Positions 13,305 through 55,061 of a DNA stretch of 64,000 nucleotides are shown here, piece after piece. Numbering within the stretch: the stretch's first letter is position 1; every line of letters begins with the position of its first letter. Source of the DNA: Lophium mytilinum (taxonomy: Eukaryota). Made by a program: the position numbers and the translations under genes. A model generated the notes under the pieces. That model was not told the DNA's origin and ran no database searches. It saw only the letters and a list, made by a program, of their open reading frames with translations. The stretch is taken from NCBI GenBank assembly GCA_010093605.1, contig MU004184.1:1374801-1438800 (forward strand), given 5' to 3'.

Positions 13305-13915
13305 ACTGAAGCTGAATCTGTGAAAAGTCTTTCATACAGTTGAGATTGTAGCTTCTTGAAGAATATCGTTCTGCATCGTGGTCGGAACTTTCTTACAAAA
13401 CACTACTTCATCCTCTCTCTATCTTGGATATACGGTTGAAGTATACGGTCACTACCCAGTTGATGACCACACTTGGTAAATGTGTTTTGGAGTACTTATT
13501 TGCCAAGAGTATTATTAATAGTATAGGCATGGCAGGAAAGCTATGTTAGTTAAAGATAAGTGCTGACTGCAAGAGACATAGGCGCTAGATGGGTACTGTG
13601 TCTATGATGAATGTGGTTACACGGTTTTATCTGTAAGTCTTTGCAACATTAATATCCAGGGCGTAACCGCAGAGGCTTCCCTTCTTCACCGCAACCTGAA
13701 TGCGCTATGCCCATGTAAGGTCTAAGTTAAAATATGTACCTACAAACACACGACTAGGTCTTATATTTCCCGACGTTTGCACCTCGTGTGTAGCGCATTT
13801 TTCTAATCTGACATGATACTGAGTGTTCATTAGATCCACCCAGCGTCTTCTAAAAAGGTGGTTACACGGTTAGATCCGTAACTCTTTCCAACAATTTGAC
13901 CCATTCCGTGGCCTC
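13305..13915 (-). repeat. Array 1 of the ~80-bp fixed-spacing repeat family (3 clear copies, 2 eroded)
   Basis: Minus-strand cores start at 13881 (TTACGGATCTAACCGTGT), 13636 (TTACAGATAAAACCGTGT) and 13351 (CTACAATCTCAACTGTAT). Each has YACG 29 bp upstream and a GAY motif 33-34 bp downstream. Weaker copies at about 13765 and 13447. Confidence 0.8.
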
Positions 13916-15061
13916 GCAGTCTCCATAAATCTCAATCAAGCAAGCAAAACTCATATACTCCATGACTCGGCGCCTAAGAGCAACAGCAAGCCCTCGCAAG
14001 ATCATTACATAGCCCCTTCACGAATTCAAGTTCCATTATCCCACGCAATCAACTCCAGTCTTTCTACCCTACTTCGCTGCACTCCCTCCCTCGCCTTTCG
14101 TCCAACTACACCCATTAGCCCACCATTCTCTACTAAAAACCGCAATTCAGGCAAGGCTAACTCACTTATTCCACATCTTCCCAATGATCCCAGGCTGCCC
14201 GACCTTCTGCTCCCCAAAACTAGCACGCCGCGCCGCCGTATCCGGGTTCCGATTATGTGCAGCGAGATTCGCGAAGAGGGGTTTGGTCACTGAAGACTAA
14301 TATCACTGTCATCACTACCAGGTCGATTTACAGCACGAGAGGTAAGATGGGTGAATTAGGCGTGAAAGGAGCATACCCTCCGCCGCTCACTCGTGCTCTC
14401 CGCAGGCTTGTCCGGGCTCGCTTGGTCGTTTGAGGCCATGTCTATCGCTCTTTATGCTTGAAGTTGTTACTTCAGGGTTCCAATTGAGTTCCGAGGGTGG
14501 CAGGTTATAGAGAGGTGTGCTGTGGTCTCGTAGCTGTGGGACAAAGAGCTGGACTCTCGCGGGCTTTATATCACACCACTGCTCTACCACTAGGAGCTTA
14601 GATCTTGGTAGCTACCCCGCACACGTCACCAGTTGAGCTCTTCGATCAGCAAGGGCCTAATGACAGGAGCGAATCGGGATGCATCGTCGACTACCCGATT
14701 TAGACTAGCGCGGATTGGATGGGTTTGCGGGGTAGCTTTTGTCAGCGGGCTGTGTCCATCTGAGCAGTTGTGGGAATCGAAAGGAGAGAAGCGAGCTACA
14801 CGGTGTAGTGGTCTGACACTTTACGAGGAACCCGTTACAAGGAGAAGATGGGACAGCTTTGATGAAATCTAGATTCGACCAATGCGATTCAATCACATGA
14901 CTACCCACTGCACATTAACTACCCCTTTTCACGTCTACAATCTTTCTTTTCCTTCCCTCATAGGTCCTTGTGAGTATACACCTCCTCCCGAGAAGCTGCT
15001 GTCATCCGCGAGGCGCTGCGCTAGTTGACATCGATCGCAACGAGCTATGTTTAGCTTGATC

Positions 15062-44883: not shown

Positions 44884-46783
44884 ATGCCCGCCGGTAGCAT
44901 GGACACGGAAAAGGGCCTGCGCAAGAACTCAGAAGGCCGATACTCACCCGACTCCATGTCGCCCGACTACTATGGCGAGTCCTCAGTGCACCGTGACGCC
45001 CTCGGGCGGCGCATCTTCGACAGCTTCAAGCGCAGCCCCAACTATTCCATGACGCCGAAAGGCACTCTGGGCGCTGACGGCAAGGTCTTCGATCTGGAGA
45101 GCGCGGCACGGAACACGGCGACGTCGCCCCTCTCGCGGACGCTGAAGGGGCGGCATCTGCAGATGATCGCAATCGGCGGATCCATTGGTATGGTGTTGCT
45201 GTTCTGCTTTTCTGGTACCGACGAGTGCTAATTTTGCTGTTCAGGGACCGGCCTCTTTGTCGGGTCCGGGAGTGCTCTGTCCCACGGTGGACCGGCCTCC
45301 GTCGTTATCGCCTTCTGTCTGATTGGCGTCATGTTGTACTGCACCGTCCACGCACTGGGCGAGATGGCAGTGCTGTTTCCCGTCGCCGGTTCATTCTCGG
45401 CCTATTCCACCCGTTTCTTGGATCCGGCCTGGGGCTTCGCCATGGGATGGAAGTAGGTCCTCCCCCGTCAATGTCAATGCGTGTCGAAACAAGACTGACC
45501 GTGACAGCTATGCCCTGCAATGGCTGGTCGTGCTACCCTTGGAGATTGTTGCTGCAACCCTCACGATTGAATTCTGGAACCACGGGAAAGTCAACAACGA
45601 CGCCTGGGTCGCCGTATTCCTCGTATTGATCGTTGGCATCAACCTGTTCGGTGTCAAAGGCTACGGCGAGGCCGAGTTCGTCTTTGCTATTGTCAAAGTC
45701 ACTGCTGTTATCGGCTTCATCGTCCTCGGCGTAGTTATCAACGTCGGAGGCGGCCCAGATGGCGCCTACATCGGAGGCAAGCTGTGGCGCGACCCAGGAG
45801 CCTTCAACAACGGCTTCAAGGGGCTCTGCAGCACCTTCGTGACCGCTGCCTTCGCCTTTGGGGGCACTGAGTTAGTAGGACTCGCTGCCGCCGAGACCGC
45901 TAACCCGCGCAAGTCGCTCCCCACGGCCGTCAAGCAGGTCTTCTGGAGAATCACTCTCTTCTATGTCGTCTCCCTCATCCTGGTCGGTCTACTCGTCCCC
46001 TACACCGACAAACGTCTTCTCAATAGCTCCACCCCCGGCAACTCTGTCGCCTCTCCCTTCGTCATTGCGATCCAAAATGCCGGCATTGAAGGCCTCCCAT
46101 CCGTCTTCAACGCCGTCATCATGGTCGCCGTCCTCTCCGTCGGCAACTCCTCCATCTACGGCTCCTCTCGCACTCTCGCAGCGCTAGCAGAGCAAAATCA
46201 AGCACCCAAAATCCTCGCATACATCGATCGCCAGGGCCGCCCTATAGTCGCCATCATCGTGGCGTCCATCATCGGCTTCCTCGCCTTCCTCGCCGGCTCC
46301 AGCAAGCAAGAAGACGCCTTCAACTGGATGATGGCCATATCGGGCCTCTCATCCGTCTTTACCTGGATGAGCATCTGCGTCTCCCACATCCGCTTCCGCA
46401 AGGGCTGGGCGGTGCAGGGTCATTCGCTCGACGAGCTAGCCTTCAAGTCGGCCGCTGGTGTCATCGGATCGTACATCGGCGCCATCTTCAACGCCCTCGT
46501 CCTCATCGCCCAGTTCTGGACCGCCTTCTCCCCGCTCGGCTACGAGACGATGTCGACGAAGGAACTCGTCAATACCTTCTTCCAAGCCTACCTCGCCTTC
46601 CCCGTCGTCTTGATCATGTACATCGGGTATAAGCTGTGGTACCGGACCCCCTTCATCCGGTCGCACAATATGGACCTCCACACGGGCATCCGCGAGCTGA
46701 ATCTCGCGGAGCTGATCGCGGAAGAGCGGCTAGATCGGGCGAATTGGCCGCGGTGGAAGAGGGTGTATAAATTCTTCTGCTAA
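44884..46783 (+). CDS. Amino acid permease (YAT family, Gap1-like)
   Basis: RHLQMIAIGGSIGTGLF, FAFGGTELVG and 12-TM hydrophobicity. Two introns near 45188-45244 and 45453-45507. Confidence 0.96.
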
Positions 46784-47234
46784 TTCGGGTATCGATCTGC
46801 GTCTTTTGCTGTTTATATCTCGATTTGGTTTCATAAACTATGGTGTGGCCGATCTAATGCGATCTTGGTGGCTGTGATATCTATCTTCCTCGGCGATTTA
46901 GCGCATGGGCGGGCTGCTGCTGTTGTTGTATTTTTAGACTACGAGATATCCCCAGATGACTTTGATGCCGGTAATGATAGCCTTGGTTCAAACCTCTTAA
47001 GTGTCTGTTTGGGGCTATTGTTGTTTGTTGTAACTGTGTTTTGTCTGCAAGTTGCTCGAGTCGTTTGAGGTCACTCGTCAAACGGGACGAGTATGCCCCC
47101 TATCCGTTACAGCTATGTCCAGCCCGCTCGACCTCAACAACGCTAGGAGCCACTCTGCTGCGTGAAGTATCCACTGTGAGAGCTGACTAGCGGAAATAAG
47201 GGACTTAAAGGGGGTCTCGAGGGGGGTACTTGCT

Positions 47235-48255
47235 GTACCGCATTAGGTGAAACCATTGCAAGTTCTTACGGATTGAACCGTGTAATGCCCAAATTTGTAA
47301 AGGCGGCGTCAATGCAGCAACGTGGAGGGGATCGGTCACGTATCCAGTGCAAAGGGGGAAACATTCACATATTGAACTGTCTGAGGAGCTTTATACCAGA
47401 CGCGATTTAGAGGTACCGTCCTCATTATCTCGAACCTTTTGAACCACGCGTCGGTTGAAAATGGTAGAAAGAATCACAGATCAAACTGTCTGATGCGCTT
47501 TTGTATAGACGTGGCGTGTACACCGAACCCCTTTTGGTGTGATTTTTACTTGGCCTACCGTAGTCACACATTGGGCGCGAGTAGTGGAAGAGTCACAGAG
47601 TTAACCACGTAACTACTTTTGTTTGTTTGATACAGCGTTTGTTAAGTGTCACCTTGATGTAGTGATTCCCCTTACGCTCTCTGGTCACGCGTTGGAGTTA
47701 TATGGTGGGAATAGTTACAGGTCTAACCGCCTGATGATAGCTTATTCAGACGCGGCGTGCACGCGAGAGGCACATGGTGGACACTTTACGTAGTTGTTGA
47801 TAGTGGTATAATCAATCATCTATGCAATACCGTCGATTGAGGCTAGTTGAATGGTTGCGATCATGTGGAGGGTGGAGGTAAGTCGAGGGCACGCCCTGGG
47901 TCAATATGTTAGAAGGAGTCACAGATTCAACCGCGTAGATGAGATCTTAGAGTACGGGCGTACGCGCCGCTTAGTGGTTATTCCAGGCTGCTCAAGCAAC
48001 GCGATGGTGCTATGAGGGAGGAGAAGTTACAGAATGAACCGAGTGATTGTATTTTTCGAGAGACACGGCGGAGATGCGGTAAAGTTGGTGAACGCCGTTT
48101 GATCGGCAAAAAATTACATCAAAGGAGACTAGAGTTGGAGAGAGAATGGAGTGGAGGTAAAGTAGAGTGGACTGAGGCCACGCGTTGAGTCGAAGAGTTG
48201 CAAAGTTTTACACATTTGTTGGTGGAATCAGTTTTAGTAGAGGCGGCATGGCCGT
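47235..48255 (+). repeat. Array 2 of the ~80-bp fixed-spacing repeat family (8 clear copies, 1 eroded)
   Basis: TYAC cores at 47266, 47365, 47474, 47593, 47715, (47816), 47919, 48027 and 48208. A CACGC-like motif lies 28-29 bp upstream and a GACGCGGCGTG-like motif 32-36 bp downstream. Spacers are unrelated to each other. Confidence 0.9.
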
Positions 48256-48628
48256 GGCATGGACGCGCAGTGACCATGAATGGGAGATGACTGGCTCTGT
48301 ATTAAGTAGAGAGCTAAGGACAGACAGTGCCTATATTAATGTACAATTATGTTCGGAGCCATATCTACAGAACAAGGGTAGTCTAATGGTATCGTTGTGA
48401 AAGTCTATAGTCACCGAAAGAAGAAGTAAAGAAGACGTAGGAGACGTGCTTATGCAGTAGAGGTGAGAATCACCTGAGGAGGTTGGTCGCACAGAGGGAT
48501 TCGCAGACCCTAGGGGCTCCCATGGACGCCCGAAAATGCTAATTAAAGGAAATGGACAAGGCTGTCAAGTGGTGCCGGTGTGTGAGTTCTGATGCCAGCT
48601 TTTCAAAGTGATTCAACCCCAAGTCATC

Positions 48629-50961
48629 TCAAAGCTTCAATTGGAACCTCGGATTTGTCCGAATTCGCTCACCGTATATCTTAAAGATAACGGGGACGGG
48701 GATCAAGGCAAGGGCAACGAAGCCTAGAAGGGAATTACCCCAGCCAAGACCGAGCTTGTTGTACATTGATAGACCTGCTAGAGGAAGTAGAGCACCGAAG
48801 ATGGAACGGATGACCGTATTGGCGGCCATCGCGGAAGCAGCGTGCAGAGTAAAGGCATCAACGAGGTAAGTTTGGATGGTCAGCTGTGAGAAATCCGTTA
48901 GCTAAGCCCACTGCTATAATTGAAGAGTGTTCACTCGGAAGGACACATACAAAGTTGCTCAGCATTCCTATTCCGACAAACGATGTACCAATGAGTGGGA
49001 CAATCCAGTGGACGTGTTTATCTGTTCCCCAGCCGTACATAAAGAGCCCGACGGGCAAGCAAATGCCGCCAGGAACAGTCAATATCATTGGCAGCCGATC
49101 TTCCGGCTTCAGAGCCTTGCCCTTCGCCTTCTGTCTCTTGAGGACTCGATCGCTAGCAACACCTAGAATGGCGAGGCCGAGAATCATACCTATGCCAGTG
49201 GCAATGTAGGTAAGTCCGACTGTTCCAGACGAGAAATGATAGTTTTCTTCAAAGACAAAGGTGATGGTCGTGAACAGGAGGTAGAGTATGCCCTTAAGGT
49301 GGCAGTAAAGTTAGCAAATATTTCAGAACCAGAATGAGGAAAACGATATCGACTTCTTGAAACAACTGTCGCGTGAGACACTTCTTCGGGGGATTCCAAG
49401 ACACCAATATGGTTGTCTCAGAATACTCCCTGAGTAAGTTTTCAAACGAACAAATTGCTGGGAAAGTTTTCATCTTTATCGTGAGCTTACGTACGTACGC
49501 AACGGCCGAGTAAAAGGACATGCAAAAGACGATAGGTGATGTCAGGAGCATCTTCGTGGGCCGCACAATGCTGAGACGGAACAGCTCCTTCGGCGAGATG
49601 GGTGACGTGAGCTTGGATCGGAGATTCGGGTTTCCGGTCTCTTTTCGAAGCCTTGCGGCTTTTCGTTCCAGGATTACGGGTGCGTACGTCTCCCGCAAGA
49701 AGACGAAAGCTAGAATAGTGACAACACCGCCCTGTGCGCCAGTGTTAGTATAAGGGGAAATGAAAAAGTAATCGGAAATAGGCTCAGATAAAACATACCA
49801 ATATCGCGATTAGGTAGAATACCCATCGCCATCCTTTTGCTTGTACTAGAAAACCCCCAATTACTGGCCCCACTACAGGTCCTATGAGTGGGCCCATAGC
49901 CCATATAGCCATGGCGCCGCCTCGTTTTTCCACGGGCATCAAGTCTGCGATCGTTCCGCCTCCAATCGTAAGAGGGGCAGATCCGACTGAGCCTTGAAGG
50001 AATCGGAATCCGACAAGCATGTTGAAGTTGCTCGACACTCCACAGGCAATAGTGAAGATGATGAAGAGTATGTTGCAGGCATGGTAGATCCACCTTCGGC
50101 CGTAGAGTTCACTCAGAGGTGCGACAATTAAAGGTCCGAACGCGAAGCCGAGCAGGAAGACGGATACGACGAAGGCTGCAAGAAGGTCTGATTTCTCGTG
50201 AAAGCCAGCCATGACTTCAGGGACGCCAGGGGCGAACATAGAGGATGCGAGAGGGCTGATGAGGTCAGCTGTAGCTCTGACTGGGAATAATAGTACTGGG
50301 CCGTAAGTCTGAGCACACGGTTTTATCACCGCTCAGGTAGCACTCCTAACAGATGAACGCCACTTCGTCGCTTTCGGTTGCAAGCTAGAACGAGATGACA
50401 CTGTCAAGAGGCTACCCGTTGCCAAAGAGCCGGTCTGTCAAGATGCAGCCCGGATTCCATTTCTTGAGAGTTGAGATCGCGTCTAGATTTTATGGAACCC
50501 ACAGGAGTGCCTCGAGCAGCGGCAGGCAAGTGTACAAAGACTCGTGGCTTGTTATGAACGAGGATGGAATGTACTCACGTCACGAAGGTGATAGATGAGA
50601 GAATGGCGATATTTCCCCACTTCAAACCATTCGAAAAGTTCATAGGGTTCTCTGGATCATTTGGGCCGTCCCAAAATATCACATTCGGGTCTGATTCCTC
50701 GGCACCCTCCTCTGGCAGCTTCTCTGTTGTATCCCCCGCATCGTCTATCTCCCCGCTAGACGTGGTGGGATGGCTGATTGCACCTTTTTCGAGGTCGCCC
50801 TTTTCGTGGTCGTGAATTGACGAGCGCTGTCCTGGGGTGTAGACACCTAGATTGGAAGGTACGTCCGCATCGTGGCCTTCTTCGTAGGCAAGCTCGAGCC
50901 TTGGGTTATCAAGGTCATGAATGTGATACGCCGGATTTGAGTAGGAGCCAGGAGTCGCCAT
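48629..50961 (-). CDS. MFS drug:H+ antiporter (DHA1 family)
   Basis: [28 protein letters not shown] and ETYAPVIL motifs. Four introns, including 50578-50256 and 49494-49293. Confidence 0.96.
49293..49494 (-). mobile_element. Introner-like intron, family A, empty form (202 nt)
   Basis: GTACGTAAGCTC...CTTTACTGCCACCTTAAG with a central hairpin GAGACAACCA-TAT-TGGTGTCTT. Homologous to PYC intron 8. Confidence 0.9.
50256..50578 (-). mobile_element. Introner-like intron, family B (323 nt)
   Basis: Nested stems GCCACGAGTCT..GTACAC / GTGTGC..AGACTTACGGC and GCACTCCT / AGGAGTGC. Plus-strand 50399-50555 is collinear with plus-strand PYC intron 5. Confidence 0.75.
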
Positions 50962-54000: not shown

Positions 54001-54585
54001 ACGTGCAAGCTGCGTCCAACGAAAACGAGTTCACATGTTTGAGTATGTGACCTTTACAACAGAAAGGCATGAATTTCTCTTGCAAGTATCTCTGCGGGTC
54101 TTTCTAAGGTTTTTGTCATCGACCTGATTTCGATTCTTCGGTTTTGTCTCAAGAAGTAACCACAGCATCTACCCTTTGCGTGCACGCCGCGTCCAGCAAA
54201 ATTATATCTATGTCGTTGAACTTGTCACTCTTTTCAATCTAACGGCTTTACTCATCCCAGGGAGGCCTTCAATTAATCCTCCTCAGCTTCCTACCGGACC
54301 TTTGGTTCTGGGACACAAGTTGACTACAACGCGTGCACATTGCGTCGAACAAGATAAATCTTCAGCGGTTCGAAATGTGACTACTTGTAACTAGGCGGCT
54401 CCAGTTTCCATAGGAAGCCATTCAGTGACTTATTATAAGCCTCCTCACTCAGAGCTGATTTGGAGTCTTCGGAGTTCGGGTAAGAAACGACCAGAATGAG
54501 CAAACGCAGCGTACCTTTGTATACGCTGCGTCTAACAAAAACAGCTTTGTACGGTTAGATCGGGGAGTTTTTATAACTGATGTCA
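54001..54585 (-). repeat. Array 3 of the repeat family (4 copies, ~60 bp conserved)
   Basis: Minus-strand cores at 54050, 54227, 54380 and 54566. In all four, GACGC begins exactly 34 bp downstream (54016, 54193, 54346, 54532). Copy 2 shares GACGCGGCGTGCACGC exactly with the 47715 copy. Confidence 0.88.
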
Positions 54586-55061
54586 ACGGAAGCACTCCCA
54601 AGCGCCTGTGGTCGATCGTCAACTTCCATGGTCCGATTCATGACCTCCAGGCAGTCGAGTTCTGATTTGCACCCAAAAGCACAAGGGTTTTGCCGTACAC
54701 CCCGAATGGAGACCGAATTCTCGGGTTGCGCATCAGGGGCAACTTGACGCCTCAAAACGTTCTAAGGAACTCTAGCTTCCACACTTTTCGGGCTAACAAG
54801 AGTTGCCTTTCTTGGAAGTGAGCCGAGTACAGTCACATGGCAAATGAAAACACATTGTACCGGGAACAAAAGACCGTAGCACACGATCTTTACCATTACA
54901 CCATTCATACCAAAGATGAGACATTATGCAGAACGTCGTCGACCAACCCAACGCCTATCGTGTTTCCGTCCCAACCGCAGCCATCGAGACCCCAACGCCG
55001 CCCATCCCAAGCACGCCGCCACAAATGCACCTATGTTTATTACACAATACCTGAACAACGC

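Follow-up and report, generated by a model that had tools for sequence, protein, structure and literature searches.

Repeat arrays in the window

The longest part without a long reading frame of a 64,000-nucleotide (nt) stretch of DNA from the Dothideomycete fungus Lophium mytilinum (referred to as the window, in whose positions all coordinates are given) is located at 46781–48852, between two convergent genes, i.e., an amino-acid permease (AA_permease, + strand, stop codon at 46781–46783) and a transporter of the major facilitator superfamily (MFS; MFS_1, – strand). This spacer contains a row of ~80-nt direct repeats (referred to as units). When the entire window was scanned with an iterated nhmmer profile, as a previous reading of the bare letters (referred to as the sequence-only reading) had proposed, 14 copies of the unit were revealed (E-values of 2e-18 to 9e-6), with the best non-family match following only at E=0.33. 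These copies are organized in three arrays, i.e., array 1 in the above-mentioned spacer (eight copies, + strand, 47235–48248), array 2 (two copies, – strand, 13591–13913), and array 3 (four copies, – strand, 54001–54580), and within each array all copies share one orientation (8/8, 2/2, and 4/4, respectively; Table 1). All 14 are situated outside long reading frames, and none lies inside a gene of the window. Array 2 is found between two – strand genes, and array 3 starts ~456 nt beyond the stop codon of the condensin gene Cnd2, with which it shares its strand. A Cnd2 fragment encoded in the window shows 100% identity to the L. mytilinum protein. Each array is oriented like the gene at its 5′ side (3/3), which is not significant (chance of 0.125).

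The family could also be recognized from a shorter signature. Allowing up to three mismatches, a 16-nt core pattern matched the window 18 times versus 4.24 ± 2.30 times in shuffled sequence, with none of 100 shuffles reaching 18, confirming the motif enrichment implied by the sequence-only reading; seven of the 18 matches stand in one row at 47265–48041. Moreover, an ungapped alignment anchored on this core also brings the 5′ and 3′ blocks of the units into line. A profile trained on array 1 only (seven seed copies) picked up both array 2 copies (E=3e-13 and 7e-8), indicating that the family is not a training artefact. The same profile weakly picked up the four array 3 copies (E=0.005–0.03), while a profile built from the two array 2 copies recovered six array 1 copies at E ≤ 1e-4. 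As a control, 20 random windows yielded a best E above 0.1 in 19 cases and of 0.006 in one. The ~80-nt repeat family is real and dispersed. Tandem Repeats Finder nevertheless reported nothing in 47235–48255, since the copies are too diverged (mean column identity of 52%).

Table 1. Positions of the repeat units in the window and of the X3 contig that covers units 1–5.
Feature	Positions	Strand	Remarks
Unit 1, array 1	47235–47315	+	nhmmer E=7.6e-13; core matches that of a copy on another contig at 23/25 positions
Unit 2, array 1	47337–47414	+	nhmmer E=1.6e-11
Unit 3, array 1	47444–47522	+	nhmmer E=4.7e-16
Unit 4, array 1 (most diverged strong copy)	47564–47624	+	nhmmer E=9e-9; 37/72 positions off consensus
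Unit 5, array 1	47684–47764	+	nhmmer E=1e-16; perfect 3′ block (17 nt, 0 mismatches), palindrome GCGTGCACGC at its end
Unit 6, array 1	47887–47957	+	nhmmer E=1.5e-13
Unit 7, array 1	47996–48070	+	nhmmer E=1.4e-11
Unit 8, array 1 (weaker)	48176–48248	+	nhmmer E=8.9e-6; core partly lost, 4-nt core deletion
Array 2 unit nearest the family consensus	13832–13913	–	nhmmer E=2.4e-18; 14/72 positions off consensus; E=3.2e-13 with the array-1-only profile
Second array 2 unit	13591–13668	–	nhmmer E=3.6e-14; E=7e-8 with the array-1-only profile
Array 3 unit, 3′ two-thirds	54519–54580	–	nhmmer E=1.9e-10; perfect 10-bp inverted repeat directly after its 3′ block
Array 3 unit, 3′ two-thirds	54331–54392	–	nhmmer E=3e-9
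Array 3 unit, 3′ two-thirds	54178–54241	–	nhmmer E=3.8e-10; 3′ block 16/17 identical to unit 5
Array 3 unit, 3′ two-thirds	54001–54060	–	nhmmer E=6.6e-9
X3 contig stretch, no break or difference	46300–47825	undefined	spans the permease stop codon and units 1–5, unspliced

For array 1, the sequence-only reading had counted eight to nine direct copies. Eight were indeed recovered at that place on the + strand, but a ninth was not detectable in the long linkers (47765–47886 and 48075–48175), each of which was searched alone for a hidden copy. The core-to-core periods along the array are 99, 109, 119, 122, 204, 108, and ~180 nt, and the linkers between the units measure 21, 29, 41, 43, 122, 30, and 101 nt. 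The values of 99, 109, 119, 122, and 108 nt had been read correctly, but the reported periods of 101 and 103 nt are in fact the single one of 204 nt. It can be observed that the first three periods (47265–47714) step by exactly 10 nt, i.e., about one helical turn; a hand calculation over all array 1 periods yields a marginal clustering of helical phase. Downstream of array 2, a very weak relic unit (13323–13368, – strand; 5.1 bits) can be discerned, with an E of 0.0032 when a 151-nt stretch is searched alone.

The family occupies at least four loci. Genome run X1 contains a further pair of copies, separated by 1.2 kb, on a different contig of this genome. In one of them, 18 nt are identical to the 3′ block of unit 5, and in the other, 25 nt match the unit 1 core with two differences. 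Beside both copies, the loose ends (at 47280 and 47748) display the unit layout as well. Apart from the contig covering the whole stretch, possibly the source of this DNA, these 18- and 25-nt pieces are the only X1 matches to the array at 80% likeness. In addition, the related organism C is represented by a contig of low depth that aligns to 48041–48188 with 12 differences and one gap in 148 nt; since it reaches from the 3′ portion of unit 7 across the linker into the beginning of unit 8, the array region is present in that relative. A pattern scan of metagenomes yielded four loci with a single match each, with no further copies and no 3′ block, which we read as chance; three of them (L001–L003) carry near-identical sequence that looks like one conserved gene shared by related organisms, unrelated to the unit. 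Those parts of the literature on L. mytilinum and on fungal introner-like elements that were at hand contain no description of an ~80-nt unit of this kind.

Unit anatomy, divergence, and proposed constraint

Each unit consists of a 5′ block (..CACGCGTTGG..), followed ~30 nt further by the core T-AC-GAT--AAC-G, and then by a T-rich run and a 3′ block, GACGCGGCGTG, which in most copies is located exactly 20 nt beyond the core. The T-rich run contains TTTT in nine of the 14 copies. The rigid internal spacing put forward by the sequence-only reading holds for arrays 1 and 2, where ten copies with 716 aligned positions display only three insertion or deletion (indel) events next to 229 differences from the consensus. 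In array 3, however, the 3′ two-thirds alone are in register, and sequence resembling the 5′ block is found 12–18 nt further off. Within the 3′ block, 16 nt are identical in unit 5, in an array 3 copy (54178–54193), and in a copy on another contig, although these units have diverged elsewhere. Directly beyond the Cnd2 stop codon (54950–55035, – strand), a run of four short words rich in GC was noticed; they are of the type GGCGGCGT(G/T)..TTGGG(G)T and resemble the 3′ and 5′ unit blocks fused together.

Copies are 30–66% identical in pairwise comparison. Identity is the same inside arrays (0.543) as between arrays lying ~30 kb apart (0.544; P=0.53), arguing against local homogenisation, and adjacent copies (0.528) barely differ from non-adjacent ones (0.509); relationships among the copies are star-like. 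The units are clearly more alike than shuffled sequence (likeness of 0.143 vs. 0.043 ± 0.004), whereas the five short linkers (21–43 nt) are no more alike than their shuffles (0.074 vs. 0.092 ± 0.015), so that the earlier description of the spacers as unrelated stands. The internal register of the units was kept while the linkers turned unrelated in both sequence and length.

The three indel events in arrays 1 and 2 compare with 27.9–37.5 expected at the ratio estimated from non-coding differences separating L. mytilinum from organism C (~5 indel events to ~41 substitutions among the differences listed, in a small and partly shown table that leaves 72 differences unlisted), and with 11.5–15.4 expected at a conservative indel:substitution ratio of 1:20. 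Moreover, the differences among units are rich in transversions, with a transition:transversion ratio of 0.66 vs. 1.34 for uniform decay at equal divergence (P=1.4e-7), suggesting a mix of saturated and kept positions; the free positions of the units are close to saturation. Conservation is also uneven over all columns (variance of 2.95 vs. 1.76 ± 0.24). Outside the 16-nt discovery core, this unevenness becomes marginal (variance of 2.15 vs. 1.68 ± 0.27 for a uniform rate; P=0.043). Taken together, these data point to old divergence with constraint on the core and the spacing. The proposal of the sequence-only reading that the units are constrained rather than a drifting minisatellite is accordingly upheld by the indel deficit, the transversions, and the equal identity within and between arrays, but only marginally so outside the core.

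The units might alternatively be a neutral relic, i.e., a decayed tandem repeat or dead element whose motifs reflect ascertainment. The near-uniform conservation outside the discovery core fits such a relic, as do the degenerate blocks of many copies and the number of columns conserved in at least eight of nine copies (six vs. 3.7 expected; P=0.16). Nevertheless, the indel deficit and transversion excess, the contrast between units and linkers, and the identical 16-mers in otherwise diverged copies all speak against it, and we consider a neutral origin improbable.

RNA evidence, folding, and reading frames

In run X3, the MFS gene is present with 67 nt removed at the joint 48883>48951 (CT..AC, corresponding to GT..AG on the gene strand). 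Since this is a spliced form, run X3 probably contains RNA. The removed intron (48884–48950, – strand; GTATGT .. GCTAAC .. CACAG) is absent from contigs of runs X3, X4, and X5 alike. One X3 contig runs unbroken from inside the permease reading frame through its stop codon and units 1–5 (Table 1). Units 1–5 can thus occur unspliced in an RNA-type contig beside the permease 3′ end, which implies neither a strand nor a function. The contig extends ~1040 nt past the permease stop codon (46784–47825); as mRNA, this would be an unusually long 3′ untranslated region (3′UTR) for a fungus. Cover is interrupted at 47826–48576 in X3 and from 47007 to ~48040 in X4 and X5, and these gaps are holes rather than evidence.

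Structural searches were negative throughout. No Rfam family reached its gathering score anywhere in the window, and arrays 1 and 2 remained empty even when matches were accepted up to E=10; array 3 contains chance-level matches alone (snR75 at 12.1 bits and E=8.8, vs. a gathering score of 40). ARAGORN found no transfer RNA (tRNA) genes in the window, arguing against a tRNA gene or tRNA-derived short interspersed nuclear element (SINE). When the 14 units were folded and compared with shuffles, z-scores spanned –1.56 to +1.45 for the unit strand and –1.13 to +1.30 for the opposite strand, with none stable, and RNAalifold predicted no consensus pairs. For a 4-bp hairpin in the core (ACNG/CNGT), 32 of 56 cells are preserved on the unit strand and 48 of 56 on the opposite strand; as the consensus alone accounts for this, it does not amount to covariation. 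The sequence-only reading had further noted that a 5′ CACGC can pair with a 3′ GCGTG, but as a general feature this pairing was not borne out, as a closing stem or inverted termini above shuffles (P<0.05) occurred in none of the 14 copies. A scan for promoter and terminator patterns did not rise above shuffles either. Self-cleaving ribozyme satellites were likewise dismissed, given the lack of an Rfam match and the presence of the hammerhead word CTGATGA in one copy only (by eye), and Sm-site-like AAUUUUGG was judged too weak (three to five of 16 copies, by eye).

These data bear on the possibility that the units act at the RNA level, either as protein-binding modules in long 3′UTRs or as a small-RNA precursor, in each case on the strand of the upstream gene. 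The unbroken X3 contig together with the spliced MFS form in the same run, the orientation of the three arrays like their 5′-side genes (only three cases), and the T-rich run in each unit would agree with such a role. On the other hand, the strand of the X3 contig is undefined and the RNA status of X3 is a tool's guess, no stable fold, conserved pairs, or Rfam family was found in any of the three arrays, and rigid distances of ~70 nt would be hard to explain for unstructured RNA. The processed small-RNA array envisaged by the sequence-only reading therefore finds no support in Rfam matches, tRNA genes, stable folds on either strand, or consensus pairs, and an RNA-level element is, overall, decidedly unlikely.

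The same X3 contig bears on an origin from introns. Introner-like elements are known to occur in Dothideomycetes (PMC4457414), and the units may resemble them in carrying a branch-point-like CTAAC, a pyrimidine run, and an AG, with a GTAAGT-like upstream donor in two copies. By eye, CTAAC, TCAAC, or TGAAC is indeed found 20–24 nt upstream of the T-run and AG, and GGAG|GTAAGT and GGAG|GTAAAG precede units 6 and 8, respectively. However, an aligned AG is present in only eight of 14 copies (YAG in six), while the GACGC that follows is present in 11; a GT stands at the 5′ edge in five of 14; units 1–5 are unspliced in the X3 contig; and no copy in the window lies inside a gene. Intron-derived modules are therefore very unlikely.

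It is even more improbable, to an extreme degree, that the units are small coding pieces, i.e., the last ~16 codons of a frame (..T-W-V-.-M-L-E-R-V-T-D-.-T-V) followed by TGA, TAA, or TAG. Twelve of the 14 copies do have a stop triplet at the corresponding position, and the frame is open for 16–19 codons in several copies. In the best-kept unit, a frame of 33 codons (13865–13963, – strand) enters from an ATG and stops at the stop triplet of the unit. Nevertheless, conservation shows no codon periodicity (6.53, 5.88, and 6.47 by frame position), in-frame stops appear three codons earlier in three of nine frame-aligned strong copies, and one TGG among 13 T-R-R triplets corresponds to independent variation (by hand). 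The stop-triplet column was accordingly dropped as a signal, being no stronger than what independent T-R-R variation gives. Comparing the 33-residue frame with 1.84 billion proteins via phmmer yielded two matches, both to unrelated repeat proteins and in the N-terminal part.

Origin of the arrays and comparison with known systems

The main competing explanation is a selfish, non-autonomous mobile element with a SINE-like, Helitron-like, or miniature inverted-repeat transposable element (MITE)-like behaviour. The blocks and their spacing would then be needed by the mobilising enzyme, the differences among copies would stem from old master lineages, inserted copies would be inert, and clusters would result from new copies landing beside old ones in a fixed orientation. 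The presence of the family on at least four loci, the star-like relationships with copies within an array no closer than those between arrays, the closest relative of unit 1 on another contig, and the unrelated linkers are all in line with this explanation. Moreover, a paper on a related fungus attributes two past transposable-element expansions to L. mytilinum (PMC12910237). Several expected hallmarks are nevertheless lacking. No terminal inverted repeat or closing stem was found in any of the 14 copies, and no target-site duplication was apparent in the ten copies of arrays 1 and 2, in which the longest shared flanking word measures 4.0 nt vs. 3.56 ± 0.94 nt in random pairs. Furthermore, the array flanks do not share sequence (best E=0.52), the co-orientation of all 14 copies within their arrays would arise about once in 2048 times under random insertion, run X1 shows no young copies (its matches at 80% likeness, apart from the contig covering the whole stretch, being the short pieces mentioned above), and the window revealed no autonomous partner. 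A mobile element hence appears unlikely, albeit worth serious consideration, and a MITE in particular was rejected for want of inverted termini, target-site duplications, and shared flanks. Helitrons are marked by a 3′ hairpin with CTRR after it and by a 5′ TC. On the opposite strand, a CTRR-like word comes after the palindrome in about five of 15 copies, with conserved sequence continuing beyond it (by eye); this Helitron motif was dropped as too weak or short.

As our tentatively favoured reading, the units constitute an ancient, oriented, modular recognition element for which DNA is a likelier target than RNA. The clusters could have arisen through ancient tandem duplication, after which purifying selection may have kept the core and the block spacing. 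The saturated free positions, the kept register, the unrelated linkers, and the strict co-orientation together fit old clusters whose core and block distances are held by selection. If selection indeed acts on core and spacing, each unit would act as an extended, multipartite site with an orientation, recognized by a putative sequence-specific factor, with boundary formation, termination, or recombination as candidate effects. Double-stranded DNA is favoured as the target because it is on a stiff duplex that fixed distances of ~70 nt make a difference, and because the units show no conserved RNA fold; units 1–5 might nonetheless play a role in the RNA in which they occur. With the same reserve, the family may be regarded as old and lineage-restricted, consisting of ~80-nt non-coding modular elements. 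In a more specific and clearly less probable form, the units would be ~75-bp multipartite sites kept by the host for a putative factor, for instance a TFIIIC-like or multi-finger protein, and the arrays would serve as boundary, termination, or fork-pausing elements in the long convergent-gene spacers of Mytilinidiales, i.e., as a fungal counterpart of clustered insulator sites.

A number of observations weigh against this recognition-element reading. The marginal unevenness outside the discovery core indicates that ascertainment accounts for part of the motif picture. The 3′ block is degenerate in about half of the copies and array 3 lacks the 5′-block register, implying that many copies would be defective. 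As for the indel deficit, indel-rich copies would escape detection, with room for them limited to the two long linkers of array 1, and the non-coding indel:substitution ratio comes from the small, partly shown table mentioned above. Finally, the 23/25 identity between the unit 1 core and the copy on another contig places sister copies in different arrays, a pattern more readily explained by a mobile element than by duplication that is purely local.

Should selection keep spacing and core, the units would represent a family of cis-elements not characterised so far, from a fungal order that has received little study, and a dense one (14 copies in 64 kb) located in spacers between convergent genes. 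It would offer a handle on termination or chromatin-boundary organisation in filamentous fungi. If the units are a selfish element instead, clusters that are strictly co-oriented yet lack inverted ends and target duplications would hint at an unusual way of inserting. Under either reading, the arrays are not a eukaryotic CRISPR (clustered regularly interspaced short palindromic repeats) analogue.

The CRISPR-like layout perceived by the sequence-only reading, i.e., repeats with acquired spacers, is a likeness of arrangement only, in that direct repeats in one orientation are parted by unrelated linkers. CRISPR repeats are ~23–50 nt long and near-identical, with spacers nearly uniform in length. 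In contrast, the units are ~80 nt long and 30–66% alike, their linkers vary from 21 to 122 nt, no cas genes accompany them, and array 1 is flanked by an amino-acid permease and an MFS transporter in a fungal host, making an actual CRISPR-like system vanishingly improbable.

Minisatellites and satellite DNA share the head-to-tail arrangement and the ~100–120 nt period seen in the tight part of array 1, but here only ~80 nt per period are alike, neighbours are not closest to each other, and Tandem Repeats Finder remained blank. The polycistronic small nucleolar RNA (snoRNA) clusters of fungi and plants likewise combine a ~100–120 nt period and one orientation with short conserved blocks and variable sequence between them, whereas the units are devoid of C/D or H/ACA boxes (by eye), of a terminal stem, and, inside arrays 1 and 2, of any Rfam match at E up to 10. 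SINEs, MITEs, and short Helitron derivatives resemble the family in being short and dispersed with many diverged, star-like copies, but the units have no inverted termini, target-site duplications, or tRNA-like part, and keep one orientation per cluster. The introner-like elements of Dothideomycetes (PMC4457414) match in fungal class and length and, in some copies, in the branch-point-like motif, pyrimidine run, and AG; they differ in that the units are intergenic or in a 3′ extension, that splice signals are not their best-kept part, and that five units are unspliced.

Several known motifs were also considered by eye. The Zn-cluster site CGG-N6-CCG was too weak (two of 14 copies), and the Myb core AACNG, the RNA polymerase III B box, and the Starship target TTAC(N7)A were set aside as too weak or short; by eye, the core fits only five to seven of the nine specified positions of the B-box consensus.

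Clusters of long modular protein-binding sites are known from TFIIIC B-box clusters at yeast boundaries and from CTCF-type sites. Under the favoured recognition-element reading, it is these systems that the arrays would resemble, sharing with them an oriented, multipartite build, an intergenic position, constant distances inside each site, and linkers free to vary.

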